Assembly (NCBI GenBank): GCA_038064195.1
Contig: JBBTTO010000002.1
Coordinates: 402,387 to 466,386, forward strand
DNA from: Patescibacteria group bacterium
Lineage (GTDB): Bacteria > Patescibacteriota > Microgenomatia > Levybacterales > UBA12049
Length of the DNA: 64,000 nt
Direction: 5' to 3'
Part shown: positions 3,091 to 60,534 of the stretch, one piece after another
Numbering within the stretch: position 1 is the stretch's first letter
Layout of the letters: each line of letters opens with the position of its first letter
The notes under the pieces: model-generated
The model's database searches: none
Told to the model about the DNA's origin: nothing
What the model saw: the letters and a program-made list of their open reading frames with translations, nothing else
Translations under genes and position numbers: made by a program

Positions 3091-3370
3091 CTACCCCTTT
3101 TTTCCCAGGTGGCAAACAGATTACGGTTATGGTTGCGCAGGTATTGCAATACCTGTTGGTCCGTATAAAGAAAAGTCGGGGAGGAATTTACCTCATAGAA
3201 TTCTCTTCTCGCCATAAAACAAAAAAAATCTCCCGGAAATATTTCGAGGAGATTGAAACTGGGTATTTATTACACGCTAATCTCCACTACTCCATGTAGT
3301 GGCGATTAAATTGCATAATAAAAAATCCCGAATTCATATACTCCATTATTATACGTATTAGCTTTGAATC

Positions 3371-14765: not shown

Positions 14766-15266
14766 ATGAAAGTATTAGTGACAGGCGCATCCGGAGCAGG
14801 AAAAACATATGTTTCATCTCAGTTAAGAGAGCTGGGTTATCCGGCTGTCGACAGTGATGATATAGGAGGGTTGTCAGGATGGTTTGACGGGCAGGGCAAT
14901 AGGGTGGACTATCCGGCAGCGGCCGGGGCTGAATTTTTGGAGAACCATAGATTTTTGTGGAACAGAAAATTTCTTGAGGAATATTTAGCGTTACACCCTG
15001 ATATCTATATCTTCGGGATGGCGGGTAATGCTTTTGAGATGCTGGATCTTTTTGATAAGGTATATTTTCTTAAAGTTCCGCCGAAAATTCAGATGGAGAG
15101 ACTGCTCCATCCGTTGCGCGCAAATCCCATGGGGCAGACAGAGTATCAAAGAAAGAATGCTGTCTGGTGGGCTCAGATGCTGGAGAGGGATGCCAAAAAA
15201 TTAGCAATTCCGATGATTGACGCGACCAAGAGTCCCAAGGAGATTTGGGAGATAATTAGTCAGTAA
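14766..15266 (+). CDS. P-loop NTPase, nucleoside/nucleotide kinase-like
   Basis: Walker A GASGAGKT at the N-terminus. The track start at 14748 overlaps the upstream stop; ATG 14766 (MKVLVTGASGAGKT) is the likely start. Confidence 0.6.
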   Translation: MKVLVTGASGAGKTYVSSQLRELGYPAVDSDDIGGLSGWFDGQGNRVDYPAAAGAEFLENHRFLWNRKFLEEYLALHPDIYIFGMAGNAFEMLDLFDKVYFLKVPPKIQMERLLHPLRANPMGQTEYQRKNAVWWAQMLERDAKKLAIPMIDATKSPKEIWEIISQ

Positions 15267-15267
15267 G

Positions 15268-15480
15268 TTTTTGTTCATACTTTTGAACCGCCAAAAGTAT
15301 GCAAAAGCTCGTGAGCTAGTGAGCGGTCACTAAATTTTCTCCTTCGTTAGTCGGGGGAATTCGGCCCCCTCATCCACACGCTGCGCTCGGTCTGGAATCC
15401 CCCTGACAACTCAGTCGAAAATTTTTAACGTGCTGCGCTCAGCGCTCACAATAAAGCACGCAAAGTGGCGAAATTAGGAA
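15268..15480 (+). ncRNA. intergenic structured element, copy R3 of a 4-member family (putative novel ncRNA)
   Basis: P1 hairpin CATACTTTT-gaaccgcc-AAAAGTATG, then CAAAAGC. P2 helix GTGAGC (15304-15309) pairs with GCTCAC (15443-15448). Long-range helix gTCGGGGGAATT (15343-15354) pairs with AATCCCCCTGAc. The 3' end GGCGAAATTAGGAAC resembles R1. Confidence 0.45.
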
Positions 15481-15503
15481 CTATTTAAAGATTCAGTGTT
15501 ATA

Positions 15504-15791
15504 ATGATCAATATGAAGAGTCGGGGGAACGAGGAGCTTATTAAAGAGATAGATGAGAAGTTAAGTATCAAAGTTTCACCTGATGCCAAGTCCACAATCC
15601 TGACCATCCGTAATCTTATCGAATCAAATTCTCGAGTGGAGGAGTCAATTGACGAGTTGCATCAAAGTATAACTGTTGCCAATAAAGAGAATGGAAAGCT
15701 CCAGACGAGAGTATATTACCTCACAATCGTTACAGTTACCCTGACTATAGTTCAAGTCATCGGCGTCATCGTCCAACTCCTTAATAAATAG
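15504..15791 (+). CDS. hypothetical small protein with C-terminal TM helix
   Basis: 95 aa with a coiled-coil-like N-terminus and hydrophobic tail YYLTIVTVTLTIVQVIGVIVQLL. Confidence 0.4.
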   Translation: MINMKSRGNEELIKEIDEKLSIKVSPDAKSTILTIRNLIESNSRVEESIDELHQSITVANKENGKLQTRVYYLTIVTVTLTIVQVIGVIVQLLNK

Positions 15792-16242: not shown

Positions 16243-16336
16243 ATGTTATTGATATTCTAAGTGGTTTTTTTATGCATGAGCCACGAAATCGGACTATTTT
16301 CCTTCAGTCGCTAATCGGTGGTAGAATAGTGAGTGT

Positions 16337-18499: not shown

Positions 18500-18574
18500 G
18501 TATTATGTAGCCTGTATAGGTATAAATAAAAGGTATTAATCATACATTATACATACTACTTGATACATGCTACA
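18500..18574 (+). repeat. direct repeat DR1 (GTATTATGTAG...TTATACATACTACTTGATACAWGCTACA); second copy at 21804-21869
   Basis: An 11-mer plus a 28-mer (27/28 identical) shared with the rarA upstream region; both copies sit about 45 nt upstream of a gene start. Confidence 0.6.
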
Positions 18575-18618
18575 TTTTACTCGCTTTACTTATTTAGTGG
18601 AAATACTACAATAACAGT

Positions 18619-21803: not shown

Positions 21804-21869
21804 GTATTATGTAGTAGGTATCACGTATGAAAGGTATCTTCTTATACATACTACTTGATACAAGCTACA
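21804..21869 (+). repeat. direct repeat DR2, copy of 18500-18574
   Basis: gtattatgtag...ggtat...ttatacatactacttgatacaagctaca. Confidence 0.6.
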
Positions 21870-21896
21870 ACTCACTCTCTATGTTAGAATGGGGCT

Positions 21897-23099
21897 ATGA
21901 ATTTAGCTATTAGGATGCGGCCGCAAACACTTAAGGACTTCGTCGGGCAGGAAGAGCTCGTCGGACAAGGGAAATTGATCAGACGAATGATCGAATCGGA
22001 TAGTTTAAGTTCGATAATTCTCTGGGGGCCTCCGGGGAGTGGCAAGACGACACTTGCCAGTATCATTGCTCATGAGACAGATAGTGACTTCCATATGCTC
22101 AGTGCCGTCTCAACCGGCAAAGAAGATCTCCAAAAAATCATCAAAGAAGCTAAAGACCAGACGCTTTTTAAAAAGAAAACCATTTTGTTTTTAGACGAAA
22201 TTCACAGGTGGAATAAAGCCCAGCAGGATGTATTACTTCCTTACGTTGAAACTGGTTTGATCACCCTCATCGGCGCCACAACTGAGAACCCCTCATTTGA
22301 AGTCAACAGTGCGCTCCTCTCAAGAAGTAAAGTTTTTGTACTCAAATCCTTGACTCCTGAAAATCTGCATACAATTATTACTCGTAGTCTTAAAGACACT
22401 GAAAAGGGTTTGGGCACGGCGAAAAAAACTATCAGTAAAGTTGCTGAGGAATTATTGATACGGCTCTCCGGCGGAGATGCGCGGGTAGTCCTCAATGCTA
22501 TTGAGATGGCGGTCACGAATTTTTCAGATAAGAAGATTGATGAGAAAATCGTTCAGGATATTTTTCAAACCAAAACAGCCGGCCTCTATGACAAGAAAGC
22601 TGATGAGCACTACAATATCATCTCGGCATTTATCAAATCCATGCGGGGATCAGATCCCGATGCGGCTTTATATTATTTAATGCGGATGCTTGAGAATGGT
22701 GAAGATCCCAAATTCGTTGCACGCAGAATGGTAATTTTCGCCTCAGAGGACATCGGGCTAGCGGACAGGGGAGCGCTTATCCAGGCCAATGCGGGATTTG
22801 ATGCAGTCCATAAAATAGGTATGCCTGAGTCTCAGCTCATCCTGGCGCACATTTGTTTGTATTTATCTACCACCAAAAAGTCCCGAAGCGTCCCGAATGC
22901 CATGGGGAGGGCAAAAGATGCTGTATATCAGTACCCCAACGAACCAGTACCTCTGCATTTGCGCAATGCTCCGACTAAACTGATGAAAGAGCTTGGCTAT
23001 GCCAAAGACTATCAGTGGAGTGAGGAAAAAGTCGGGCCGAAAGGCGACCTCGGTTTCTTACCCGAAAAGTTAAAGGGGAAGAAGTTTTATGAAGAATAA
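21897..23099 (+). CDS. rarA: replication-associated recombination protein A (AAA+ ATPase RarA/MgsA)
   Basis: Walker A LWGPPGSGKTTLA, Walker B LFLDEIHRWNK, and the MgsA C-terminal domain. Confidence 0.9.
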   Translation: MNLAIRMRPQTLKDFVGQEELVGQGKLIRRMIESDSLSSIILWGPPGSGKTTLASIIAHETDSDFHMLSAVSTGKEDLQKIIKEAKDQTLFKKKTILFLDEIHRWNKAQQDVLLPYVETGLITLIGATTENPSFEVNSALLSRSKVFVLKSLTPENLHTIITRSLKDTEKGLGTAKKTISKVAEELLIRLSGGDARVVLNAIEMAVTNFSDKKIDEKIVQDIFQTKTAGLYDKKADEHYNIISAFIKSMRGSDPDAALYYLMRMLENGEDPKFVARRMVIFASEDIGLADRGALIQANAGFDAVHKIGMPESQLILAHICLYLSTTKKSRSVPNAMGRAKDAVYQYPNEPVPLHLRNAPTKLMKELGYAKDYQWSEEKVGPKGDLGFLPEKLKGKKFYEE

Positions 23100-23280
23100 G
23101 TTTTTTCTGTACTTTTTCCCGCAAAAAGTACCAAAAGCTCTCGCCCTGTCTTCCTCAATGCAGAAAAATATGATTCGCTCATTAAAAGTTAGTGCTATTG
23201 ACTTGCAACTTTTACCCTTCAGGTCATTCTCTCATCATATTTTTCTAGGCTTTCGACGCGAACGGGCGATCATAGGAACC
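23100..23280 (+). ncRNA. intergenic structured element, copy R1 (putative novel ncRNA family)
   Basis: Starts 1 nt after the rarA stop. P1 GTACTTTTT-cccgc-AAAAAGTAC, then CAAAAGCTCTCG. P2 CGCCC (23143-23147) pairs with GGGCG (23264-23268). P3 TAAAAGT-variable loop-ACTTTTA. About 85 % identical to R2 in the conserved blocks, with compensatory changes. Confidence 0.5.
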
Positions 23281-23311
23281 TTATAAAAAAACGATTCTTT
23301 ATTAAGAGGAG

Positions 23312-25475: not shown

Positions 25476-25499
25476 GGTTTTTCTGCTTTTTCAGGGGAG

Positions 25500-26786
25500 T
25501 CACCTTACGAGGGCATTTTTGCCGGCAAAGACAGCCGTGTCTCCTAACATCTCCTCGATACGCAGCAGCTCGTTGTATTTAGCGACTCTATCTGAACGTG
25601 AGAGTGAGCCAACTTTTATTTGCCCTGTATTAAGTCCTACAGATAGGTGAGCGATAGTTGTGTCTTCTGTTTCACCACTCCTATGAGAGATGATGGTCTT
25701 CCAGCCGGCTTTCTGGGCCATTTGCACTGCCTGAATAGTCTCAGTCAGTGTGCCAATTTGATTGACTTTCACCAAAATAGCATTGGCTGCTTTTTGGCTA
25801 ATGCCTTTTTCAAGGAATTTGATATTGGTGACGAGTAAATCATCGCCGACAATCTGAATTGAATCACCCAAGCTTTGTGTCAATTTCGTCCAGCCTTCCC
25901 ACGCTTCCTGCTCGAGGCAGTCTTCAAGTGACACAATCGGGTATTTCTCCGTCAATTCCTTGAGCCAGGTAATAAGTTCATCAGTGTTTAAATCCTTACC
26001 TTCTGATTCCATTTTGTAAACACCATCATGGTAGAACTCTGAGGCTGCACCGTCAATGCCAAAAACGATATCCTCGTCTGTACGATAACCTGCTTTGATA
26101 ACTGCTTCGGAGATGAGTTCGAATGCCTCAGCGTTGCCGTGCTTTAATTTAGGGGCAAAACCGCCTTCATCACCGACTGCGATGCTATAGCCTTTTTCAT
26201 CGAGTGTCTTGGCTAAATTATGGAAAACTTCGGTTCCCATTCTCAGCGCCTCTGAAAAAGTCGGAGCACTGATCGGGAAAATAATGAACTCCTGAAGATC
26301 CGCAGCCCAGTTGCCGTGTTTGCCGCCGTTGATGACATTCATCATGGGAAGTGGGAGGGTGAAGGTGGAGTTGCCGGAGAGGTTGCCTAAGTAATGATAA
26401 AGTGGAAGCTTCTGACTGAGGGCTGCGGCTTTAGCTGCTGCAAGTGAAACAGCCAGGATGGCGTTAGCTCCGAGATGGGACTTGTTCTCAGTACCGTCAA
26501 GATCGATCATGAGCTGGTCAATACCTGCCTGATCGAATATATCGTGACCTGTGAGGCTGTTGGCGATAGGGCCGTTGACGTTAGCTATGGCTTTAAGCAC
26601 GCCTTTGCCTAAATATTGGCTTTGATCCCCATCCCGTAGTTCAAGGGCCTCATGGGTACCTGTAGAGGCTCCAGAGGGCACTGCTGCACGACCTAGAATG
26701 CCGTCTGTTAGAGTGACATCAGCTTCAACGGTGGGGTGGCCGCGGGAATCAAGGATCTGGCGAGCGTGGATGGATGCAATCTTCAT
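25500..26786 (-). CDS. eno: enolase
   Basis: [24 protein letters not shown] and SHRSGETED; full-length 428 aa. Confidence 0.95.
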
Positions 26787-26849: not shown

Positions 26850-27022
26850 ACCCCTAATAGCAGTTTGTTTGTAGGGGAGAAACCCCATGGGGTTGTGTTG
26901 GGGGAGAAAAACGGGTATAATGGGTAAATAATATAGGACTCTGCTGAGTTCAGCAGAGTTGGCAAGATCTTTCAAGGGAGTCACCCCGCAAAGGATTGTA
27001 TGGCGGGGAGACACCCTTTTTT
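26850..27022 (+). promoter_or_regulatory. structured typA leader / divergent eno-typA control region: nested GC hairpins, TATAAT, and a terminator-like hairpin plus T6 ending 3 nt before the typA ATG
   Basis: GGGGTTTCaCCCCTa...tAGGGGaGAAACCCC (14-bp composite stem), cgggTATAATggg, CTCTGCTGagttCAGCAGAG, CACCCCGC-aaaggattgtatg-GCGGGGAGACACCC-TTTTTT-aat-ATG. Confidence 0.35.
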
Positions 27023-29965: not shown

Positions 29966-29992
29966 ATCTTCTCGAATTTATTTAATTTAAGG

Positions 29993-30180
29993 TTTTTTCT
30001 GTACTTTTTTCCGCAAAAAGTACCAAAAGCTCTCGTCCAGTTTTGCTCAATGCAGAAAATGGCGACTCGTTCATTAAAAGTTACGGCCTCCACTGAGTTT
30101 CGCCTTTCAACTTTTACCCTTCGGGTCATTCATTCGCCACCATTTTCTAGGCTTTCGCGGCAAGTGGACGATCAGAGGAG
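29993..30180 (+). ncRNA. intergenic structured element, copy R2 (closest paralog of R1)
   Basis: Same P1 hairpin (loop tccgc) and CAAAAGCTCTCG. P2 CGTCCA (30036-30041) pairs with TGGACG (30164-30169), compensatory relative to R1. The P3 stem is conserved with a different, longer loop. The indel pattern breaks any common reading frame. Confidence 0.5.
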
Positions 30181-30469
30181 TTTATTATATGAAAAATGAT
30201 TTATTCAGCTGGTTTTCAAAAAACTCTTATATGTTTCTTACGGGATTTTAAGCAGGCTCTTATACATGAGTAATATGATCTAGGTCATAGAACTTGGTGG
30301 AATTTGGAGGTAAAGTAATATAACAGGTTAAGGAGTTTGTCCACCATGACTTACTTTTCGCCTTAGATCATTTGATCTGCGGCTCAAAGAGCGTTCAATT
30401 GGCGGACTTAAGACTCTCTAATTCTGATTTCTAGCAAAATCAGAAAGAGACTCTAAAGGAGGTGAGAAT

Positions 30470-32667: not shown

Positions 32668-32976
32668 TTACCGGCCGCTGTCAACATGACTATTCTTGAA
32701 GATGTATTGGACTACTGCGTAACCGGTCGGAATTTGTGTACTAAAACCGAAAGGTCCTACCTCTCGGAGAACGACTACTTGATAGAGGTTGTATCCCTTC
32801 AAGCTCATTTCGTTGAGCTTTGCGGTTACCTCCTTGTCATTTTGTGGCAAGTAACAAGTCCAGGTTTGGTATTGTGGCGTTGTGGCCATTTTGAAACCTC
32901 CATAGCCGTGTGGTCTCGAACCGATTTCCGAGAACCCCGGTGTAGTTGCTTTTTTTTCAAGGGTTTCACCTTGCAT
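32668..32976 (-). CDS. hypothetical small protein, possibly DUF4177-like; low confidence
   Basis: ...QYQTWTCYLPQNDKEVTAKLNEMSLKGYNLYQVVVLREVGPFGF... loosely resembles the W-EYK...LNELG.EGWELV pattern. It overlaps an antisense plus ORF (32686-33057), so neither reading frame can be preferred. Confidence 0.25.
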   Translation of the reverse strand: MQGETLEKKATTPGFSEIGSRPHGYGGFKMATTPQYQTWTCYLPQNDKEVTAKLNEMSLKGYNLYQVVVLREVGPFGFSTQIPTGYAVVQYIFKNSHVDSGR

Positions 32977-33229
32977 CAGTTTGTTTGGCGAGGAGAAACC
33001 TCTTTAAGTAACCACATCGGGATTCTCGGAATTTTCAGCGTAGTTCTGCGGATATAAAATGTCCGCCTTTTTCGCGCTTGTACTAGATTTCCTGCATACC
33101 TTGTTAAAGTACAAAAACTAGCGAATGGCATATGGCGTATAGCAAATAGTAGAACTATCTACAACGACACAAGCTATTACTAATAGGTGATTATACCTCA
33201 AAGAATTGTTGAAAGTAAAACTATGGGGC

Positions 33230-43688: not shown

Positions 43689-43928
43689 AAATACAAAAAA
43701 CCGGCTTCCTTTCAGAACCGGTTAGTGAAAAAAAGTTTATTATTTTTTAAATCACGCTAAAGACACCGGCTCTATCCCCGCGAACCAGTGATAAAAAGAA
43801 TTTATTTTTAAATGAGACTTCATCCCTTGATGTTAGCATACCTGAGTTCGTGAGTCAATTTTTAGAAGATGGTGTGCTTTTTAGTCTTGCGACCAAGGCA
43901 GCATGAATGCTGGCACACCCACCCCGGT

Positions 43929-44348
43929 TCATTTGAGTTCGATCTTTCGATAAAAAATCCCCCCATCTCGTTCTGGGACGAGATAGAGCCCGATAAATCC
44001 CCCTCGCTCAGGATATGCCGCCATAAAGGCTTTTGTGTCCTTCATGGAGATCATGTACTCACCGACGATGACGATCTGAGATTCGGTTGCCGATGCCAAG
44101 TGGCCGATAACCGACCACAGGCTTGGTTTCCAGATATCGTCAGGGTAGTCACGGATGAGCTGGATGATCCTGAAAGCTGCTCCAGGATACCAGAGTCCGA
44201 GTTCTCCCAAGAGTTCCATGACGTCCGTTTCTTCAAGCAGCTCAAAGCCGACGTTGAGGATTCGCATGAATCCAAGTCGGATCCGTGCTGCTTCCGCTTG
44301 GCTTGGATTCTCCAAACCTTTTTCTGGACCGTCCACACAGACCTCCAC
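43929..44348 (-). CDS. hypothetical protein (high GC)
   Basis: 139 aa. The overlapping plus ORF 43869-44414 reads as Cys/Trp/His/Arg-rich noise, so the minus frame is preferred. Confidence 0.35.
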   Translation of the reverse strand: MEVCVDGPEKGLENPSQAEAARIRLGFMRILNVGFELLEETDVMELLGELGLWYPGAAFRIIQLIRDYPDDIWKPSLWSVIGHLASATESQIVIVGEYMISMKDTKAFMAAYPERGGFIGLYLVPERDGGIFYRKIELK

Positions 44349-44469
44349 TCACGACGTTACTCAAATGACGTGGGTGTAGTATACTCCAAATTCCCTTCGA
44401 ATCAACTCTCCTAATCCATGAGCACATTTTATTTCAAGTAAGGTTCTAAAGATCGCGGATTGAACGCAT

Positions 44470-44660
44470 ATATATTCTTCTAAAAACGTGCTTTTTAGAA
44501 CAAAGCGCGTAAATAAATTGTGAGTGAGTTGTCAGGGGGAATCCGGTCCTTTAGTGGCCGAAGGGGGAGGACAATCCTCCCGACAACGAACGAACAATTT
44601 TAGTGCGACTTCGCAAAGCACGCAGTTTTGTACACTTTTGCTGCCACGCCCTATGAAATA
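44470..44660 (+). ncRNA. intergenic structured element, copy R4 (R3-like)
   Basis: P1 TTCTAAAAA-cgtgc-TTTTTAGAA (44478-44500), then CAAAGCGCG; GTGAGTGAG; GAGTTGTCAGGGGGAATCCGG (reverse complement of the R3 motif GGAATCCCCCTGACAACTC); AAAGCACGCA shared with R3. Boundaries approximate. Confidence 0.35.
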
Positions 44661-44747
44661 GTAGTCCCTTGAGGAAAAGTGCAAAGAAAATCTTTTCCAA
44701 CAAAAAAGCTCACACTTTGTGAGCTTTTAAGCAGAAAAACCTAGTGC

Positions 44748-45005
44748 TTATGCAGCCATAGGTGCTTCATTTGTGTCGTCAGTGTTACCTGCGTCACTTG
44801 TGCCGGCAGAAGCGCGGGCTACATTTTTTGCAAAAGGGCCTTTATCGCCACTTCCCATTTCAAATGTAACTTTGTCGCCTACTTGAATATCATCCCAAGT
44901 CCATCCTTGCAGATCATTGGAATGGAAAAATAGATCTTTTTCTTCGCCATCACGACTAATGAATCCGAATCCTTTTTCTGTCTTTACTTTAATTATACCT
45001 TGCAT
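44748..45005 (-). CDS. cold-shock protein (CspA family) with an acidic C-terminal tail
   Basis: MQGIIKVKTEKGFGFISRDGEEKDLFFH, the RNP1-type motif. Confidence 0.8.
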   Translation of the reverse strand: MQGIIKVKTEKGFGFISRDGEEKDLFFHSNDLQGWTWDDIQVGDKVTFEMGSGDKGPFAKNVARASAGTSDAGNTDDTNEAPMAA

Positions 45006-51493: not shown

Positions 51494-53889
51494 AAAGGTT
51501 TTCCCTCCTACCTGTTAGCCTTCTTTTACTTATTATCCTTGTCTTTTTCTACCCGATTTTTAAAGGCTGGATCCCTTTCCCGGGAGATTTAGTAGTTAGC
51601 ACCCCACCATACAGTACGCAATCCTTCCTGGGGTATGCACCGGGTGGCGTTCCTAATAAAGCCCAAGGACCTGATGTTATCAGGGAGTCAATGCCTTGGA
51701 AATTCTTTGCTATAACGAGTTTTAAAAAAGGCGAGATTCCTTTTTGGACGCCCTACAATTTTTCGGGCAATCCCCTCATGGCCAATTTTCAGAGCGCTGT
51801 CTTTTATCCGCTTAATGCTATTTTCTTTAGTTTTCCCTTTTTGAGTGCCTGGACGATTTTTATTACCCTTTCACCTTTGTTGTCTGGGTTATTTACCTAC
51901 TTCTTTTTGCGTTCACGTAATCTGTCTACTGTAGCAAGTCTTTTTGGTGGTGTTGTATTTGCTTTTTCCTCATATATGGTTGTCTGGCTTGAGTGGGGGA
52001 ATATCACCCATACCCTGTTGTGGTTGCCTTTAGCCCTTTTCTTTACCGAAAAGTATCGTACCAAAGCCAAGTGGCAGTATCTGTTGGCGCTGGTCGGTTC
52101 GCTGTGGCTGTCTTTTTTGGCAGGCTATATTCAGGAGTTTTTTTATCTCATCATTGTTGTGGCTCTCTATTATTTCGCCTTTGAATTTGGTCTCCTCAAA
52201 AAGTCTCTGCCTAAAGCAGGTATTTTTCTGATCTCTCTTATTTTTCCGGTATTGTTATCGTTATTCCAGCTTTTACCGACATTATCTCTGCTTGCTATCT
52301 CATCTCGTAACAGTTATTCGCTCACACAAATAACGGCCCTCCTTAATCCCTGGTGGTATGCCATAACGATTTTTATTCCTGATTTTTTTGGCAATCCTGC
52401 CGCTCGCAATTTTTGGTTTGTCGGTACGTATATTGAGAGAGTCTCATATTTCGGGGTGATACCGTTCTTACTGGCCGCAACTGCTCTCTTTAGCAAAAGA
52501 AAAGATGTGATGATTTTCTCCTCCATTTTTGCAGTTTGCCTTCTACTCTCACTTGACGTATTCGGAGTCAAATATCTTTACCTTCTGCCTCTGCCGATGC
52601 TCTCGACCACCGTCCCTACCCGAATATTGGGCATTCTTTGTTTTAGTGGCGCGGTGCTGAGTGCTTATGGGCTGGACGCATTGAGGGAAGGGATTTCAAG
52701 GAAGCGTTTTTTTCTGTCAATCCTGCTTGGCGGATTTTTACTCAGTATTGCCTGGGTGTTTGTTTTTTTCGGTTCTCATTTTTTTACGAAAATTTCACCT
52801 GAAAGCTTTGCGGTTACCAGACACAACCTCATCATTCCCACTTTCTTGAGTTTTATTTTTGTGGTTGCAGTTGTGATTCGCTTCAGTACGCTGTTTCGCA
52901 AAATTCCCAGGGCTGCAACCCTTCTTGTTATCTGTCTTTTTGTTATTACACTCGGAGATCTTTTTTATTTTTTCCATAAAATTACTCCCTTCGCACCGCG
53001 TGAATTTGTCTATCCGAGGACACCGGTTATTTCGTACTTACGAGAACACGCAGGTATTAACAGATTCTGGGGATATGGTTCAGCCTACATCAGCAGTAAC
53101 TTCCAGACCTATGACAAGACATTCTCACCCGAGGGGGATGATCCTCTTCATACTAAAATTTATAGCGAATTCATTGCCGCCTCAAATGACGGCAAGTTGC
53201 CGGTAGTAGCATCCCGTCTGGATGCCAATATTAAAGGGGGCTATGGCCCCACAGACCTGAGGAGTAATTTCTATCGTGAGCGGGTCATGGCGATCCTGGG
53301 TGTCAAATATATCCTGAACAAGAATGATTCACTGGGGAGTGAGCAGGATCCTGATACGGGAACTTTCCCCCATGAGAAATATCGCCTTGTCTGGCAGCAG
53401 GCACCCTGGCAAGTCTATGAAAATCTATCAGTTATTCCCAGAGCTTTTCTTACAAACGACTACCGCGTGATCTCAGATCCACAGTCAGCACTTAGCACGT
53501 TATTCAAGCCTGATTTTGATCTTGAGAAGACAATTGTTCTTGATCAGGATCCGCATCTGTCGAAAGGATCCTTGACGAGAAAATCCGTCAAGGTTGTCAG
53601 TTATCAGCCAAATCAGGTTGTGATAGAGACGGTATCAAATGCTGATGCCCTGCTTTTTTTATCGGATACCTATACACCTGACTGGACAGTTACAATTGAT
53701 AGCAGAAATGCTACAGTATATAGAGCTGATTATGCCTTTCGGGCGGTACCAATAACAAAGGGGCAGCATACAGTAATTTTTTCTTATTACCCGGCATCAT
53801 TTGACATGGGACTCAGGGTAAGTATCGGCTCATTTATCGTTATGGTTATAGGACTGGTCATCGCAAAAAAGAGAAAAATACTTGTCTGA
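51490..53889 (+). CDS. YfhO-like large membrane protein (lipid-linked glycan transferase candidate)
   Basis: 799 aa with about 14 TM helices and a C-terminal soluble beta-rich domain ending in a final TM; the layout resembles the YfhO family. Confidence 0.45.
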   Translation: MKRFSLLPVSLLLLIILVFFYPIFKGWIPFPGDLVVSTPPYSTQSFLGYAPGGVPNKAQGPDVIRESMPWKFFAITSFKKGEIPFWTPYNFSGNPLMANFQSAVFYPLNAIFFSFPFLSAWTIFITLSPLLSGLFTYFFLRSRNLSTVASLFGGVVFAFSSYMVVWLEWGNITHTLLWLPLALFFTEKYRTKAKWQYLLALVGSLWLSFLAGYIQEFFYLIIVVALYYFAFEFGLLKKSLPKAGIFLISLIFPVLLSLFQLLPTLSLLAISSRNSYSLTQITALLNPWWYAITIFIPDFFGNPAARNFWFVGTYIERVSYFGVIPFLLAATALFSKRKDVMIFSSIFAVCLLLSLDVFGVKYLYLLPLPMLSTTVPTRILGILCFSGAVLSAYGLDALREGISRKRFFLSILLGGFLLSIAWVFVFFGSHFFTKISPESFAVTRHNLIIPTFLSFIFVVAVVIRFSTLFRKIPRAATLLVICLFVITLGDLFYFFHKITPFAPREFVYPRTPVISYLREHAGINRFWGYGSAYISSNFQTYDKTFSPEGDDPLHTKIYSEFIAASNDGKLPVVASRLDANIKGGYGPTDLRSNFYRERVMAILGVKYILNKNDSLGSEQDPDTGTFPHEKYRLVWQQAPWQVYENLSVIPRAFLTNDYRVISDPQSALSTLFKPDFDLEKTIVLDQDPHLSKGSLTRKSVKVVSYQPNQVVIETVSNADALLFLSDTYTPDWTVTIDSRNATVYRADYAFRAVPITKGQHTVIFSYYPASFDMGLRVSIGSFIVMVIGLVIAKKRKILV

Positions 53890-55540
53890 TATGAAGAGAT
53901 TTTTTTGGGTTTTATTAGGGCTTATTTTTTTAGTTGCTCTTTTTCTGAGATTCTCGCAACTTGCCAAAATCCCTGTCGGATTTCATACCGATGAGGCATC
54001 GCTTGGCTACAACGCCTATTCACTCCTTATGACCGGTAAAGATGAGGCAGGACGTGCTTTCCCGCTTTATATTGATACGTTCGGTGATAATAGGCCGACG
54101 GGCTATAACTATCTTGCTATGCTGCCGATTAAATTTTTCGGCTTGAGTATTTTTGCGACCCGCTTACCATCCGCACTCTTTGGTAGCATGTCTGTTTTTG
54201 CCATTGCCTTTCTTTCTTTTGTTCTTTTCAAGAACAAAAAGATTGCTCTTTTAACAGGCATGCTTTTGGCCATCGCTCCCTGGAGTGTTGTTTTATCCCG
54301 TGCCAGCGATGAGGCAGTTGTAGCACTTTTTTTCATCCTTATCGGCTTTGCCTTTCTTTTTTTGAGTTTACGATCCAAGAGACAGTTGTACATTATTTTA
54401 GGAGGCTTATTTCTCCTCATAAGCTTCTTTTTTTACCACACCCCCCGTGTTTTTGTCCCTATGCTTTTTCTCGTCTTCCTGGGATATTTTTTCTGGCAGT
54501 TTCGTACCCGTCTCTCCCGGACTCACCATACGCTGATGATCTCTGTTTTTTGTTTACTGTCTGTCATAGCAGTCTATCTGGTTTTTCTTGTTAGCGGCGG
54601 GACGGGACGTTTTTCACAAGTCAATATTTTTACTTTTCCTGAGACCAAACTTGTTATGCAGGAGCAAATTCGTGAAGACGGAAGTATGCATGCACCGCTC
54701 ATTACGACACGTGTATTCCACAATAAATTAGTTAATTATCCGCTCACTTTTGTCTCAAATTACCTGACTTATTTTACCGGGGACTTCCTTTTTATCAAAG
54801 GCGGACTGCCGATCTGGTATCAAGTCCCCTCTATGGGTTTGCTGTACCTTATCGAACTGCCATTCTTACTTTACGGTCTTTTCCTCTTATGTAAAAGTGA
54901 TGATCCGTTGAGTAAGTTACCGCTTTTGTGGTTACTTATTGCACCGGTTGTCTCCTCAATTACCGTGGACGATGTTCCCAACGTTAACCGCGTTATCGTC
55001 CTTTTCCCGATTATGGAGGTGATTGTCGGATATGGCCTCTATACCTTTGTGACTAAGTTTAAAAAAAATACAAAGTTATTCATTTCAGTTGGTGTAACTT
55101 TGTTGTTTATAGCTAATTTGCTCTATTTTCAGCATCAGTACATCGTCCATGCATCAACGCACCGAACATGGTATCGCAATAATGGCTTTGATCAGATGGT
55201 TGCTACACTTCAGGAGTCCTATGCCGGGTCTGACCGGATTATTGTCACCAAATCCATGGGTAGTATGTATCCGCTCATCCTTTTTTATATGAAATATGAC
55301 CCTGCTCTCTACCAAAGAGAAGGCTCAAGCAAAGACCGCGAATATACAGGCTTTGGCAAATTCCTTTTTGTTCCTCAAGACTGTCCGTCTATCACCAAAG
55401 ACAGCCGTTTCCCGATAGGGCATAACCTTATCTATATTAATAACGGTAACTGTCCGGATGATAAAGGTAAGTTAGTTAAAAAGCAGGTTATCATCAATCG
55501 TGAAGACGGGACCAAGGCCTTCAAAATAGTCTATGACTGA
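53882..55540 (+). CDS. GT39/PMT_2-like membrane glycosyltransferase
   Basis: FHTDEASLGYNAYSLLMTGKDEAGRAFPLYIDTFGDNRPTGYNY, the DE-motif loop; polytopic. Confidence 0.6.
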   Translation: MSDMKRFFWVLLGLIFLVALFLRFSQLAKIPVGFHTDEASLGYNAYSLLMTGKDEAGRAFPLYIDTFGDNRPTGYNYLAMLPIKFFGLSIFATRLPSALFGSMSVFAIAFLSFVLFKNKKIALLTGMLLAIAPWSVVLSRASDEAVVALFFILIGFAFLFLSLRSKRQLYIILGGLFLLISFFFYHTPRVFVPMLFLVFLGYFFWQFRTRLSRTHHTLMISVFCLLSVIAVYLVFLVSGGTGRFSQVNIFTFPETKLVMQEQIREDGSMHAPLITTRVFHNKLVNYPLTFVSNYLTYFTGDFLFIKGGLPIWYQVPSMGLLYLIELPFLLYGLFLLCKSDDPLSKLPLLWLLIAPVVSSITVDDVPNVNRVIVLFPIMEVIVGYGLYTFVTKFKKNTKLFISVGVTLLFIANLLYFQHQYIVHASTHRTWYRNNGFDQMVATLQESYAGSDRIIVTKSMGSMYPLILFYMKYDPALYQREGSSKDREYTGFGKFLFVPQDCPSITKDSRFPIGHNLIYINNGNCPDDKGKLVKKQVIINREDGTKAFKIVYD

Positions 55541-57203
55541 CTTCATTACGCTGCATAAAAGATTGGTTTTTGCATGTGTTGTTTTTTTGGCAATTTTTCT
55601 TCGTTTTTATCAACTAGGAGTCAACCCTCCATCGCTTGACTGGGATGAGACTAGTATTGGCTACAATGCATACTCGATTTTACATACAGGCAAGGACGAG
55701 TATGGGAATAGACTTCCTTTAAGTTTTCGCTCATTTGATGATTACAAGCCGCCTATTCTTATCTATTTGACAGTACCGAGTGTGGCGATTTTTGGCTTGA
55801 CAGAGCTTGCAGTCCGTCTGCCGGCTGCAGTTTTTGGCGTCATTGGCGTGATTGCAGTTTATTTCCTGGTTAAAGAATTGTTACAAAGCAAATCCGGAAA
55901 AAAAACTATTACTCCGGAAGTGCAGCAATCCATAGCCTTTTTAGCTATGATTTTTCTGGCAATATCGCCCTGGCACCTTCAGTTCTCTCGGGCGGCTTTT
56001 GAAGGCAACATCGGACTCACATTTTTGCTTCTTGCACTTATTTTCTTTTTTAAAGCGTGGCAGAAGGCATATTACTATTTTCTTTTTTCTCTTTTCTTCA
56101 TTTTGAGTATGTATTCATATCATAGTTTTCGCTTGCTTGACCCTCTGGTATTACTTATATTGATTGTTTTTTTCACAAAGCAGCTTTTACAACAAAAAAA
56201 GATCTTTATATTTTCTTTTATTTTGATAGTTCTATCCACAATTCCGATTTATACTAGCGTTTTTGCGTCTCAGGGTACGGGGGCGAGGCTTTCAATGGTG
56301 ACGGTTTTTTCTGATCCGCGTCTCCAGCAAATTTCAGCCGAGCAGGTCTTACTGGCCAAAAAGCAGCACAACATCCTTAATCAACTGCTTTATGATCGAC
56401 GGATTATCTTTATTCCAAGTATTGTTAAAGGCTATTTCGATCATTTTAATTTCGATTTTCTCTTTGTTCATGGTGATGGGGGAGTCCAACACCATGCATA
56501 TCAAATGGGCATGCTTTATCTCTGGGATTCCCCCTTTGTTATTGCAGGTATTATTTTTTTACTGCGACATAGAACAAAACGTATTCTTTTATTGTTCCTT
56601 ATTTTTATTCTGGCGCCTCTTCCATCTGCAATTACGACAGGTACCCCGCATCCAGTGCGGGCAATCGCAATGATGCCGGCCTTTCAGATTTTTGCAGCAA
56701 CTGGTATCGTTTGGCTAGCAGTATTTTTACAAAAAAAGAAGAAGTTCAACCTCATTGCGATCTCTGTGGTTGTTCTGCTATTTGCCATAAATTTTGTTTA
56801 TTATTTGAATAGCTATTTTGTTTTGACACCGATTCACTACGGTTATTTCTGGCAGTTTGGCAATAAAGAGGCAGTGCTTTATGCCAAAGCCCACGAGAGT
56901 GAGTATGAGCAAATTATTATGACGTATACCTATGATCAACCCTATATTTATTATCTTTTTTATCATAAAATCGATCCTGTTTGGTATCAAAAGAACTGGA
57001 ATTATAGTGAGAACGGGGAAGTCCAACGTTTTTATCGTAAGATCGGGAAGTATGAATTCATGAATATCACACCTAAGGACTTTTCGCGCAAGAAGACATT
57101 ATTGATCGGTACGCCTTCAGAGATACCAGACAATGTGGGTGAGATCAAAGAGGTGATTCACTTTCCGGACGGGAGAGTTGCCTACAAAATTGTAGCTTTA
57201 TGA
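55533..57203 (+). CDS. GT39/PMT_2-like membrane glycosyltransferase (paralog of 53882-55540)
   Basis: LDWDETSIGYNAYSILHTGKDEYGNRLPLSFRSFDDYKPP, the same loop motif. Confidence 0.6.
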   Translation: MTDFITLHKRLVFACVVFLAIFLRFYQLGVNPPSLDWDETSIGYNAYSILHTGKDEYGNRLPLSFRSFDDYKPPILIYLTVPSVAIFGLTELAVRLPAAVFGVIGVIAVYFLVKELLQSKSGKKTITPEVQQSIAFLAMIFLAISPWHLQFSRAAFEGNIGLTFLLLALIFFFKAWQKAYYYFLFSLFFILSMYSYHSFRLLDPLVLLILIVFFTKQLLQQKKIFIFSFILIVLSTIPIYTSVFASQGTGARLSMVTVFSDPRLQQISAEQVLLAKKQHNILNQLLYDRRIIFIPSIVKGYFDHFNFDFLFVHGDGGVQHHAYQMGMLYLWDSPFVIAGIIFLLRHRTKRILLLFLIFILAPLPSAITTGTPHPVRAIAMMPAFQIFAATGIVWLAVFLQKKKKFNLIAISVVVLLFAINFVYYLNSYFVLTPIHYGYFWQFGNKEAVLYAKAHESEYEQIIMTYTYDQPYIYYLFYHKIDPVWYQKNWNYSENGEVQRFYRKIGKYEFMNITPKDFSRKKTLLIGTPSEIPDNVGEIKEVIHFPDGRVAYKIVAL

Positions 57204-58864
57204 TAAAAAAAATCTATCCCGGTTTATTGCTTATTGTTTATTGTTTACTGACCTCCTTGCCTGTCATCCTGCCTTATTTTCACCCGGGCTATTTCCCCAC
57301 ACATGACGGTGAATGGGCTGTAATACGATTAGGTGATATGTTCAGGAGTTTACGTGATCACCAATTTCCTGTGCGTTTCAGTGGCAACCTTAACTTTGGC
57401 TATGGCTATCCGCTATTTAACTTCACCTATCCTGCCCCTTATTACATCGGAGTTCTTTTTCATTTCCTCAAATTCGGCTTTGTCGATACGATTAAAATAC
57501 TCTTTGCCCTGAGCGTTGTCCTCTCCGCGATCGGGATGTTTTTGTTATCAGCCAGGCTTTGGGGTCATAAGATGGCAGGCTTCATTAGCGCATTTTTATA
57601 TGTTTATTTTCCCTACCGCATAGTGGATCTGTATGCACGGGGGTCAATTGGTGAATCACTTTCTTTTGCTCTCTTTCCGTTTGTTCTTTTTTTTCTTGAT
57701 AGGATTCTTTCGGGGAATAAGACATATTTATATGTAGCGCTCGGTTCACTGAGTTATGCGTTGCTTATTTTGACGCACAATATTATGGCAGTCCTTTTTA
57801 CCCCTGTTCTTATAGTTTTTATTTTTGGGAGGATGTATTTTGAAAAGTCCAAAAATTTTTTACCTCCTCTTGTTTTTATTACCCTCAGCTTTATCCTGTC
57901 CGCATTTTTTTGGTTACCGGCACTTGTTGAAAAAAACAGTATTCTTCTTTCCCGTATTCCCATAGCTGATAGGAGTATTTACTTTGTCAATCTGTCTCAG
58001 TTGATCATTCCTCGGTGGGGATATGGTCTGCCTGATCATCCGGACGGTTTTTCTTATCAAATCGGCTTGCCGCATATTATTATAGTTCTTACCGTCTTAG
58101 GTCTTTTACTTTATTTTTGGCAAGCCAGGAAAAAAGTTCTGACGAAATATCATTTTCAGTTGTCCGTTCTTTTACTTATTATAGTTGTGGCTTTTGTGTC
58201 TATGATGTTTTCTGTGAGTTCTCTGCTTTGGCAGGCTCCTCTGCTTAAAGAAATTAATTATCCTTGGACACTTCTTGGGCCTCTATGTTTTGTGATCAGT
58301 CTTCTGGCGGGGTTTCTTTGTTTGCAGCATAAGTTCATCAAATACCTCTCAGTTGTTCTCTGTGTTGTAGCTGGTATACTTATTCTGCCCAATGCCAGGC
58401 CGTCTTCGTATTTTGACAAGGGGGATAGTTATTATTTGACCAATGACGCGACGACGACCTCGTCGAGGGAGTTAATGCCTTTATGGGTCAAGACCCAGCC
58501 TTCTCTCCGCGTGGAGCAAAAGGTAGAAGTTATAAAAGGGGAGGGAAGTATCTCAAATAGTTTTGCTGATTCGCGTTTAATTACTTTTGTCGTTGATGCC
58601 AAAGACAAGATAACGCTGCGGATCAATACCATTTATTATCCGGGGTGGACTATACAAGCTAACGGAGTTGCTGTCCCGATTGATTATACGAACAGGCTTG
58701 GAGTTATGGATATCACTGTTCCCGTCGGGCGGCATGAGATTATCGCGAAGTTTGGGGAGACGCCATTGAGACTTACTGCCGATATCCTGTCGCTGGTTGG
58801 AATTATCATTGTCTTGTATCTGATTATAATGGATCGCTTCAAGATCAAATTTTTAAAATCATGA
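57200..58864 (+). CDS. polytopic membrane protein, GT-C/YfhO-related (PTPS-related membrane family-like)
   Basis: FHPGYFPTHDGEWAVIRLGDMFRSLRDHQFPVRFSGNLNFGYGYPLFNFTYPAPYYIG; C-terminal YYPGWTIQANGVAVPIDYTNRLGVMDITVPVGRHEI beta-domain followed by a final TM. Confidence 0.45.
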   Translation: MIKKIYPGLLLIVYCLLTSLPVILPYFHPGYFPTHDGEWAVIRLGDMFRSLRDHQFPVRFSGNLNFGYGYPLFNFTYPAPYYIGVLFHFLKFGFVDTIKILFALSVVLSAIGMFLLSARLWGHKMAGFISAFLYVYFPYRIVDLYARGSIGESLSFALFPFVLFFLDRILSGNKTYLYVALGSLSYALLILTHNIMAVLFTPVLIVFIFGRMYFEKSKNFLPPLVFITLSFILSAFFWLPALVEKNSILLSRIPIADRSIYFVNLSQLIIPRWGYGLPDHPDGFSYQIGLPHIIIVLTVLGLLLYFWQARKKVLTKYHFQLSVLLLIIVVAFVSMMFSVSSLLWQAPLLKEINYPWTLLGPLCFVISLLAGFLCLQHKFIKYLSVVLCVVAGILILPNARPSSYFDKGDSYYLTNDATTTSSRELMPLWVKTQPSLRVEQKVEVIKGEGSISNSFADSRLITFVVDAKDKITLRINTIYYPGWTIQANGVAVPIDYTNRLGVMDITVPVGRHEIIAKFGETPLRLTADILSLVGIIIVLYLIIMDRFKIKFLKS

Positions 58865-60534
58865 ATATAGCTAAAAAGATACTTCCTGTTGTTTCAATCC
58901 TTACTCTTTCCTTATTGGCTATCCAGCCTTTTTTTCATAAGGAGTTTTTCCCGATTCATGATGCCACGCAAGTAGCGCGTGTTTTTGAGATGCACCAGTC
59001 ACTCCAGGGCTTGATGTTTCCTGTTCGCTGGGTGCAGGATTTGGGCTATGGCTATGGCTATCCGATTTTTTCTTTTTATGCCCCTCTTGCGTATTATCTC
59101 GGAGCATTTTTTATGTTTCTCGGTTTTTCCGCTCTCCTTGCAACTAAAATAATGATTGCCCTTGGGGTGGTACTTGCCGGTGTGACTATGTATTTTTTTT
59201 CCAAGGAGCTTTTTGGCGAAAAAGCAGGTGTTCTTTCAGGAGTCCTTTATGTTTTTGCTCCTTATCATGCACTTAATATTTATGTCCGCGGCGCAATAGG
59301 CGAGGTATGGGCGTACGCTTTTATTCCCTTAGCATTCCTCGGCTTTTTGCAAATTGCCAAAAAGCCGACATGGATCTCTATTTCCTTGGCGGTAGGGGGA
59401 CTTGTCGGCATCATTATTTCTCATAACTTAACCGCTTTGATCGTGGCTCCTTTCCTCCTGGTCGAAATTGCTGTTTTATTTTTCCGTTTTCCCGGTAAGG
59501 CTTCCCGTAAGGGTCTATTGCTTGGGTTGATATTGTCTTTTTTAATCAGCAGCTGGTATACATTACCGGCAGTTTTTGAAATGGGGTATACCAATGTTGT
59601 CTCCCAAACCGGCGGAGGTTCTGATTATAAAGATCACTTTGTTTGCCCTTCGCAGTTATGGTCGAGTCAATGGGGATTTGGGGGTTCGACAAGCGGTTGT
59701 CTGGACGGTCTTTCATTTCAGATAGGGAAAATTCATATCTTACTGGCAGCTATCGGATTAAGTAGCGTATTATTTCTTAAACGCAAAAAAGAACGCAGAA
59801 TCGGATTACTCCTCGCGTTGGGAATACTCGTAGCAACTCTTATGGTGTTACCGGTGACCAAACCTCTCTGGGATACTCTCTCTTTTATGAAATATCTGCA
59901 ATTCCCTTGGCGTTTTCTGCAGATTGACCTTTTTTTCATCTCTCTTCTTGGTGGTTTTTCCGTCTTTCTTTTTGCTTTTATTGAGGAGCGTCTAAAAACA
60001 AAATACAGCGGAGTTGTTATCCTGAGTTTGACTATTACTATTCTCGGTATAGCTTTCTTCTACACCAAATTATTTCAGGCCCAGTTTTTCTATGATCCAT
60101 ATCCTGACCAAACAAAAAAATCGACATTGAATTGGGATATTTCCAGGATTTCTGACGAATATCTTCCTGCTACTTTTTCCAGGCCTCATTCCAGGGATGA
60201 AGTTCCGTCGCTGCCTTACCGGCCAACTGAGACTGCCAGTGTTGAGATTCTTGTAGATACACCTGGCCAGCTTATTTTATCTGTTAATGCTGTAGCTGAT
60301 AGTCATCTGATTTTGAATCGGGCATATTTTCCGGTGTGGCATATCACTCTCGATGGCCACCGTGCCTCCTACGCTATCGGGAACGGCTTGTATGATGTCG
60401 TTATTCCTGAGGGCAGTCACAACTTGACTGTAGTTTTTGAGCAAACCCCGCTTGAGCGGGTGAGTAATATTCTGTCACTGGTTGGCATTGTCCTGCTGGT
60501 TCTTGGTATACTATTGAGGAGATTTACTCTATAA
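58861..60534 (+). CDS. paralog of 57200-58864 (same membrane family)
   Basis: FFPIHDATQVARVFEMHQSLQGLMFPVRWVQDLGYGYGYPIFSFYAPLAYYLG; C-terminal AYFPVWHITLDGHRASYAIGNGLYDVVIPEGSHNL followed by a final TM. Confidence 0.45.
   Translation: MNIAKKILPVVSILTLSLLAIQPFFHKEFFPIHDATQVARVFEMHQSLQGLMFPVRWVQDLGYGYGYPIFSFYAPLAYYLGAFFMFLGFSALLATKIMIALGVVLAGVTMYFFSKELFGEKAGVLSGVLYVFAPYHALNIYVRGAIGEVWAYAFIPLAFLGFLQIAKKPTWISISLAVGGLVGIIISHNLTALIVAPFLLVEIAVLFFRFPGKASRKGLLLGLILSFLISSWYTLPAVFEMGYTNVVSQTGGGSDYKDHFVCPSQLWSSQWGFGGSTSGCLDGLSFQIGKIHILLAAIGLSSVLFLKRKKERRIGLLLALGILVATLMVLPVTKPLWDTLSFMKYLQFPWRFLQIDLFFISLLGGFSVFLFAFIEERLKTKYSGVVILSLTITILGIAFFYTKLFQAQFFYDPYPDQTKKSTLNWDISRISDEYLPATFSRPHSRDEVPSLPYRPTETASVEILVDTPGQLILSVNAVADSHLILNRAYFPVWHITLDGHRASYAIGNGLYDVVIPEGSHNLTVVFEQTPLERVSNILSLVGIVLLVLGILLRRFTL

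Follow-up and report, generated by a model that had tools for sequence, protein, structure and literature searches.

The 64,000-nucleotide stretch analysed here (the window; contig JBBTTO010000002.1, positions 402,387 to 466,386) contains an intergenic element, R3, flanked on the same (plus) strand by a kinase-like gene and a small open reading frame (ORF) with a hydrophobic C-terminus, as the original prediction had described. The ORF is followed by a NUDIX hydrolase gene and a GH18 gene. The source contig of 1.07 Mb stems from Hainich groundwater (0.1-um filter, ENA ERZ1292617), the G+C content is 44%, and homologues of the neighbouring proteins carry the labels Patescibacteria, Levybacteria or Shapirobacteria. 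R3 had been proposed as a divergent member of a set of four similar elements, R1 to R4. We find that it belongs to a large dispersed family of structured intergenic elements of about 180 nt in Patescibacteria (Candidate Phyla Radiation, CPR), and we tentatively favour the reading that these elements are read through from the upstream gene and act in cis on the transcript.

A dispersed family with a conserved fold

When metagenome contigs were scanned with the core pattern of R3 (TCGGG..CCCCCT..GAATCCCCCTGA), at least 120 loci were recovered, and the matches listed comprise about 94 distinct true elements, together with a few chance matches in G+C-rich coding DNA. Genomes contain many paralogues that vary in their outer parts around a constant core, and two types of outer rod, type A (including R3 and R4) and type B, are built on the same core. 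Element boundaries are sharp, the flanks being unrelated right up to the edges. Covariation was scored against a hand-written structure in a structure-blind MAFFT alignment of 54 type-A sequences. Paired cells amount to 88.7%, as opposed to 43-52% in slid controls with the 3' partner moved by 1-3 columns, both-sided changes occur in 29 of 48 pairs, and the covariation score is 0.341, compared to 0.06-0.09 in the slid controls; none of 500 shuffles reached the observed values. An alignment of 102 distinct sequences to a covariance model, which is biased toward the model's own structure, was 91% paired and scored 0.369 versus about 0.06. The fold is real and selected. R3 itself is more stable than shuffled sequences on both strands (z -2.67 and -3.00). 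The element was rejected as a coding sequence, because its loops vary in length and so interrupt any reading frame.

Within the window, the type-A covariance model assigned 118.8 bits to R3, which was itself included in the seed, 115.8 to R4, 36.9 to R1 and 32.1 to R2, and nothing else scored. A profile built without R3 and R4 recovered R3 with an E-value of 1.7e-30 over profile positions 3-174 and R4 with 6.6e-24, while it matched R1 and R2 only over the 5' module, at positions 3-50. One model is therefore insufficient, and two subfamilies are needed, R3 being grouped with R4 and having covarying helices of its own, as had been anticipated. The nearest relative of R3, L144, is 78% identical over 174 nt. 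R1 and R2 possess a rod of their own, with six compensatory pair changes between the two copies, and are devoid of the C-rich core despite the common module; blastn found no match between the body of R3 and that of R1 or R2, and the body of R3 is indeed, as claimed, different and richer in G+C (0.49 versus 0.40). By the original prediction, similarity limited to the A/T hairpin would speak against a common RNA. Between R3 and R1/R2 the likeness is indeed confined to the A/U-rich module and an orphan tail, as that refutation had required. R4 differs in that its 5' module has a loop enlarged by an insert of about 30 nt. It follows a cold-shock gene (44748-45005, minus strand) and then a hairpin with a T run, which looks like the terminator of that gene.

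R3 keeps the family helices M1, P1, P3, P4 and P5, its row being fully paired (Table 1). Across the family, both-sided changes affect all six pairs of P1 and all seven pairs scored in P4; P2 of R3 is register-shifted in the MAFFT alignment and has two non-standard pairs in the model alignment. A two-sided, pyrimidine-rich loop with the motif YTCGYTCA on both arms separates P4 from P5 in the family alignment. The bases that had been drawn as a local stem-loop, GCGC-tca-GCGC inside CGTGCT...AGCACG, are in fact the 3' strands of P3, P2 and P1, which, according to the covariation of the family, pair with 15311-15330.

Two further proposals concerned the tip of the rod, a long-range helix GTCGGGGGAATT/AATCCCCCTGAC and the hairpin GGGGG-aattcgg-CCCCC (H1). 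The GTCGGGGG/CCCCCTGAC helix and this hairpin are mutually exclusive, because both draw on the G run at 15353-15357. The GTT-A-GTC/GAC-AAC part of the long-range helix covaries and constitutes P5, whereas its G-run part excludes H1, which is favoured by the variants seen in the family (GGGTG/CACCC, GGGAGGA/TCCTCCC in R4 and GGGAGG/CCTCCC in L067). The minimum-energy fold of R3 pairs the G run with the second C run instead. The invariant columns do not discriminate between the pairings of the G run; GTC/GAC and the adjacent pairs covary. The second C run forms part of the junction AATCCCCCT, the invariance of which is partly imposed by the core search pattern. H2 is strong and covarying in relatives (CCTCA/TGAGG, CCGAC/GTCGG and others); in R3, four of its five pairs are flagged as non-standard in the register of the covariance model.

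The 3' tail that R3 was said to have in common with R1 proved to be a more delicate case. Segment GGCGAAATTAGGAAC (15467-15481) agrees with GGCGATCATAGGAAC of R1 in 12 of 15 positions, a match that is not above chance when taken alone (4 matches with at most 3 mismatches versus 2.0 expected); the likeness is credible because it occurs at the same place in R1, R2, R4 and outside relatives. The GGCGA of the R3 tail has no 5' partner, the partner being TCGCC in R1, R2 and type B, so that the tail is an orphan. Type B closes with UCGCCA/UGGCGA, and this closing end is common to type B, R1 and R2. A similar orphan tail follows R4. The tail of R3 has no counterpart in the orthologous element of L250, the locus from the closest relative of the window genome.

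Table 1. Elements, substructures and neighbouring features, in window coordinates
Feature	Position	Strand	Remarks
P-loop kinase-like gene (AAA_18), upstream	14766-15266	+	Pfam E 3e-06; gene call of 166 aa; stop TAA 15264-15266
R3	15267-15453, with tail to 15481	+	begins 2 bases past the stop of the kinase-like gene
5' module of R3	15268-15310	+	A/U-rich hairpin, trailing GCTC
Module leader TTTTG, T-rich	15269-15273	+	able to pair with CAAAA 15302-15306
Module stem CATACTTTTG with CAAAAGTATG	15276-15285 with 15292-15301	+	loop AACCGC
P1, GTGAGC with GCTCAC	15311-15316 with 15444-15449	+	rod-closing helix; R3 row GC TA GC AT GC CG
P2, TGAGCG with CGCTCA	15320-15325 with 15436-15441	+	pairing read from sequence; family covariation
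P3, CAC with GTG	15328-15330 with 15430-15432	+	pairing read from sequence; family covariation
P4, AAATTTTC with GAAAATTT	15332-15339 with 15417-15424	+	R3 row fully paired
Large internal loop, 5' side TCCTTC	from 15340	+	3' side TCAGTC
P5, GTT-A-GTC with GAC-AAC	15346-15352 with 15405-15410	+	column 119-192: AU 25, GC 19
H1, local hairpin GGGGG-AATTCGG-CCCCC	15353-15369	+	alternative: G run paired with the second C run
H2, hairpin	15373-15396	+	weak in R3 (TCCA...TGGA)
Invariant junction AATCCCCCT, second C run	15397-15404	+	unpaired if H1 forms
3' rod arm	15405-15453	+	P5' GACAAC, TCAGTC, P4' GAAAATTT, bulge TTAAC 15425-15429, P3', P2', P1'
Orphan tail GCACGCAAAGTGGCGAAATTAGGAAC	15456-15481	+	aligns with 3' ends of type B, R1 and R2
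Extended -10-like box TGTTATAAT	15497-15505	+	7 nt upstream of ATG 15513; read from sequence
Downstream 92-aa ORF (92/95 aa)	15513-15791	+	no Pfam match; hydrophobic C-terminus read from sequence
Decayed type-A 5'-arm fragment GAAATCGGACTATTTTCCTTCAGTCGCTAATCGG	16268-16326	+	nhmmer E 0.0011; between NUDIX and GH18 genes
R1	23099-23285	+	same module, different body; closing helix TCGCCC/GGGCGA; between convergent genes MgsA and histidine phosphatase
R2	29991-30180	+	R1 paralogue, 78% identical
R4, second type-A copy	about 44484-44692	-	found by blastn of R3 against the window; 115.8 bits

A separable 5' module

The hairpin TACTTTT-N-AAAAGTA followed by CAAAAGCTC matches the window exactly three times, in R3 (15278-15310), R1 (23110) and R2 (30002), where 0.01 matches are expected, and thus bears out the claim that these elements have a 5' module in common. 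Its stem pairs covary across the family (GC/CG/AU at columns 11-61, as well as UA/CG and AU/UA). A 21-base pattern run against one genome per GTDB species yielded at least 120 loci, and the matches listed also agree at positions left free by the pattern, namely GT ahead of the stem, CCG in its loop and C behind the stem. Taxa among these matches include Balneola/Balneolaceae, Levybacteria, Saccharibacteria, Gracilibacteria, Buchananbacteria, Oscillospiraceae and Chitinophaga, among others, with several loci on the same chromosome in Balneola that are very alike in their alignment. Several of the GTDB loci carry R3-like bodies; overall, the sequence 3' of the module varies by lineage and is again a helix-closed structured body. 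In several phyla the module, a separable unit, stands ahead of unrelated bodies.

Within 3 kb of about 120 module loci, no protein family recurs, and no transposase, integrase or reverse transcriptase does. Viral sequences are nearly free of the module, with only three matches in 2.9 million viral contigs and none by blastn in a phage collection. We rejected the module as a sigma-70 promoter or palindromic operator, given that its stem covaries (GTAC/GTAC versus CTTC/GAAG) and its loop ranges from 3 nt to about 30 nt, and as a terminator, given that it is T-rich ahead of the stem and A-rich behind it, whichever strand is considered.

Position, constraint and exchange between copies

All four copies in the window have a co-oriented gene upstream, and in the family the upstream gene is co-oriented in 38 cases versus 17; for the downstream gene, orientation is random, with 27 cases on the strand of the element and 28 on the other. 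In 17 of 81 cases, a stop codon lies 7-12 nt before the module stem. The upstream genes are ordinary housekeeping genes, encoding DnaJ, RNase J, EF-G, S10 and MsrB outside the window, and MgsA and CspA within it. In L149, two elements are arranged tail-to-tail, 36 nt apart (1122-1304, plus, and 1340-1518, minus), and a co-oriented upstream gene was seen for one of them. Ahead of the minus copy of L149 lie a strong Shine-Dalgarno sequence and a 12-codon ORF, the stop of which falls within the module hairpin loop. In the 20 kb around R1-R3, canonical terminators show no enrichment (13-33 kb of the window; 21 versus 17.6 expected).

A scan of the R3 locus (15100-15700) detected neither a sigma-70-like promoter nor a terminator-like site. 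The extended -10-like box TGTTATAAT escaped it for lack of a -35 box; this box, kept as TGGTATAAT in L250 (about 3270-3285), is probably the promoter of the downstream 92-aa ORF, and its spacing and conservation suggest a leaderless mRNA. An exact 11-nt repeat, AGTCGGGGGAA, occurs within R3 (15349-15359) and again at codons 3-6 of the downstream ORF (15519-15529). It is not kept in L250, which reads AGTAGGGAGAA, and it is not a family trait, a G run being found within 150 nt downstream in 7 of 89 loci.

Constraint on the element is best seen at four orthologous loci downstream of dnaJ, all of which carry a type-A element. These elements are 75-81% identical, compared to 57-71% for third codon positions of the adjacent gene (62-69% for the three usable codon alignments) and 45-54% for the downstream flank; the sequence comparison indicates purifying selection or repeated homogenisation. 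The R3 site offers a second comparison. In L250, where the kinase protein is 86% identical, an element occupies the same site, with an outer rod and H1 resembling R4 and an H2 inside resembling R3, a mosaic that points to exchange between copies. In more distant relatives, the kinase gene is followed by only 21-80 nt and the neighbours differ. The relatives came from a protein database, since a metagenome search with the kinase-like gene as query returned none. R3 does not differ among six near-identical strain copies of the locus, which are therefore uninformative on variation.

Copies also occur dispersed. Of 19 element pairs with 90-96% identity, 17 lie beside non-homologous genes, and no target-site duplication was found (longest common flank substring 4.35 in matched versus 4.41 in mismatched pairs, n = 54). 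Remnants of the 3' arm follow complete elements on the same strand in 4 of 84 cases by nhmmer, with none upstream and similar counts by regular expression; this excess is weakly supported. The 5'-arm fragment at 16268-16326 has no module, no core and no 3' arm.

Small insertions were seen at several elements. A mini-insert of about 30 nt (ACCCnAAGGGTACTAGCTACAnnGTAGCnGCG-like) is present in different loops, namely the module loop of R4 (about 44630-44665, minus), L250 (3100-3135) and L229, and resembles a very small independent insertion element. A further insertion, the G+C-rich palindrome CCTGCCTGCCGGCAGGCAGG or CTGTCTGCCGATAGGCAGGCTG, occupies the bulge UUAAC of L142, L160 and L213 and the terminal loop of the Balneola loci L045 and L078. 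Just upstream of the module, a recurrent hairpin GTCATCCTGAAnnnnnTTCAGGATC, often followed by a T-rich tract, is found at many loci, for example L140, L145, L146 and L214, and in the Balneola loci L036, L094 and L121; it may be a second repeat family or a terminator.

The window has further features. Directly past R2, at 30183-30245, we read a Shine-Dalgarno-like AGAGGAG and a 20-codon ORF, MKNDLFSWFSKNSYMFLTGF. Near R4, opposite-strand overlapping ORFs at 43869-44414 (181 aa, plus; 139 aa, minus, the latter without a Pfam match) are both unconvincing, so that most of the sequence downstream of R4 may be non-coding. Immediately upstream of the plus-strand LD-carboxypeptidase and MgsA genes (18533-18585 and 21842-21880) lies a 39-nt repeat, 87% identical (TTATACATACTACTTGATACAnGCTACA...), which may be a shared promoter or operator. 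A 37-nt repeat (TTTCAAGGGAGTCACC...) occurs three times (25489-25525, 26970-27006 and 32955-32991), its first two copies flanking the intergenic region between the divergent enolase and TypA genes. Between about 45000 and 63000 the AT skew is strongly negative (-0.18 to -0.25), and four tandem ORFs of about 555 aa, possibly paralogues, occupy 53882-60534.

Known systems and possible roles

No known family fits the element. At gathering thresholds, Rfam 15 finds only two tRNAs in the window and, at 18 outside loci, rRNA, tRNA, tmRNA and DUF805 only, none of them at the elements; it gave nothing credible for the R3 and R4 regions at E-values up to 10, and nothing in E-value mode at five loci. 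Full-text literature searches for the motif sequence and for structured RNAs or repeats of CPR bacteria returned nothing relevant, nor does the element appear in a 2026 preprint on intergenic features. 6S RNA was rejected in view of the four copies in 64 kb and the Rfam result for the window, and an intrinsic terminator in view of the terminator scan at R3 and an A/U-rich module hairpin that is T-rich before and A-rich after. A miniature inverted-repeat transposable element does not fit either, as the ends TTTnTTTGTAC... and ...GCGCTCGCA are not inverted copies and target-site duplications are missing. An IS200/IS605 mini-element or TnpB/IscB guide RNA was dismissed because the hairpin is at the 5' end only and no protein family recurs within 3 kb. 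Rfam includes the HEARO and IS605-orfB motifs, and no Rfam match falls on the elements.

Among dispersed repeats, ERIC/IRU and Correia (NEMIS) elements come close. They, too, are long imperfect intergenic hairpins of 100-200 nt with tens of copies per genome, lying in transcribed intergenic or 3' regions in either orientation and tolerating internal insertions, and their transcripts influence how stable neighbouring mRNAs are, or how these are processed, by way of RNase E or RNase III. However, there is no sequence similarity, and neither the terminal inverted repeats nor the TA duplication of Correia elements are seen in R3-type elements, which in turn possess an extra 5' module, conserved asymmetric bulges, a non-palindromic two-hairpin tip, and copies that are divergent within one genome and carry compensatory changes. 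REP/BIME/REPIN sequences resemble them as dispersed extragenic hairpins with mosaic modules, maintained pairing and no target duplication, often at gene 3' ends, where REPs stabilise the upstream mRNA. Yet a REP is a G+C-rich sequence of 20-40 nt, near-identical within a genome and linked to RAYT, as opposed to the far more elaborate R3-type element of about 180 nt with its A/U-rich module; no RAYT was seen in the DNA examined, in the course of which no systematic test for it was made, and the 20 window proteins scanned contained neither a transposase nor an integrase domain.

The attC sites of integrons likewise conserve structure over sequence, form imperfect hairpins with extrahelical bases directly past the stop of a co-oriented gene, and work as single-stranded DNA, a property that R3-type elements might share. 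In contrast to R3-type elements, they measure 57-141 nt and carry R''/R' core sites (RYYYAAC / GTTRRRY); R3-type ends read GTTTTT... and ...GCTCAC, and the neighbours are scattered housekeeping genes in mixed orientations rather than cassette arrays. Finally, the small RNAs RsaE/RoxS and LhrC also expose conserved unpaired C runs, some of them with multiple paralogues, but have their own promoters and terminators, are about 100 nt long and are represented in Rfam, where R3-type elements match nothing.

As R3 has neither a promoter nor a terminator of its own, we propose read-through from the upstream gene, by which the element would be included in that transcript. There it could act in cis as a stable, probably protein-bound 3'-end or intercistronic structure that would define, protect or process the mRNA end and insulate the transcript from the next gene, which at R3 has its own promoter-like box. 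Copies would be kept by selection at some sites and would also spread and exchange segments, as REP/BIME, ERIC and Correia elements do. That R3 is transcribed and acts as RNA, and in which specific role, we infer, and several points weigh against it. G-U pairs number 62 and A-C mismatches 66 (about 60 and 36 without one doubtful pair), and such a lack of G-U excess is unusual for a selected RNA and fits pairing of single-stranded DNA equally well. About 30% of the copies are not co-oriented with the nearest upstream ORF, by crude gene calls. The good-looking terminator before R4, our own reading of a region outside the scan, would make read-through weak there, and R3 itself is possibly a decaying copy, since its 118.8 bits compare with 150-190 for typical type-A members and its H2 is weak. 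Furthermore, a simple hairpin would suffice for 3'-end protection, so that the elaborate conserved loops point to something more specific. With near-identical dispersed copies and mosaicism added to the missing G-U excess, a DNA-level mechanism stays seriously in play.

By such a mechanism, which we rate as unlikely although weightier than the remaining alternatives, hairpins in single-stranded DNA or cruciforms would be recognised by a recombinase or HUH-type enzyme encoded elsewhere, and copies would spread in the manner of REPINs/REP-RAYT, IS200/IS605 mini-elements or attC, with any effect on RNA being secondary. The base-pair statistics, the sharp boundaries of near-identical copies beside non-homologous genes, and the absence of target-site duplications, as with IS200/IS605, would all be accounted for, as would a sub-terminal hairpin with conserved flank across phyla, the very similar Balneola copies with several per chromosome, mosaic copies and orphan arms, and small palindromes inserted in loops; even the orientation bias could follow the replication strand instead of the upstream gene. 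It is harder to reconcile with a one-ended hairpin lacking terminal inverted repeats, with the failure of any transposase, integrase or reverse transcriptase to recur at the module loci or appear among the window proteins scanned, with the scarcity of the module in viral contigs, with window-genome copies that are old, divergent and compensated, and with an orthologous copy conserved above synonymous sites.

The C runs suggest a different route, a trans-acting small RNA cut from the 3' untranslated region of the upstream mRNA, with the C-rich AAUCCCCCU as seed for G-rich sites resembling ribosome-binding sites, as in RsaE/RoxS, and with the 5' hairpin as processing site or protective cap. At least one of these invariant runs is unpaired in either fold, paralogues are many, with a constant core and variable outer parts, and the next ORF after R3 offers, at its start, a possible pairing partner for the C run (15519-15529). 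We nevertheless consider this improbable: the element lacks its own promoter and terminator, the invariance of the C runs owes something to the search pattern, R1 and R2 carry the module without a C-rich core, and the complementarity to the ORF is lost in L250. With G runs downstream in so few loci, pairing of the C run with a downstream G run was rejected as a general mechanism. Least probable by far is a cis-regulatory leader, that is, a riboswitch or attenuator of the small membrane-protein gene that would switch between the two mutually exclusive pairings of one G run. The recurrence of the 11-nt G-run segment at codons 3-6 speaks for it, yet that repeat is lost in L250, where the promoter-like box past the element is kept, and no Rfam riboswitch matches. 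Half of the family faces a convergent downstream gene, and R1 lies between convergent genes; the orientation statistics have already largely refuted this reading.

Beyond the cis-acting reading that we prefer for R3, a wider and rather doubtful view holds that the A/U hairpin with CAAAAGCUC marks an undescribed superfamily across phyla (Patescibacteria, Balneolaceae, Oscillospiraceae, Chitinophagaceae and others), in which the R3-type body would be a new functional class of CPR non-coding RNA, a protein-binding or bistable three-way-junction RNA that spreads and swaps segments, possibly via an intermediate of RNA or single-stranded nature, at which the 3'-arm remnants downstream of full copies would hint.

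In CPR bacteria, whose genomes measure about 1 Mb, non-coding DNA is very scarce and few regulators are known. Four copies per 64 kb correspond to about 1% of the genome if this density holds, and an element of 180 nt recurring every few to about 16 kb, with more than 100 covarying relatives, is a substantial uncharacterised component of such a genome. If it acts as RNA, it would be a candidate way to end, stabilise or process transcripts in a region without enrichment of canonical terminators; if its action is at the DNA level, it would add a novel type of non-autonomous element to a lineage regarded as having little mobile DNA. The cross-phylum 5' module offers an easy way to search for related elements and for their recognition factor.

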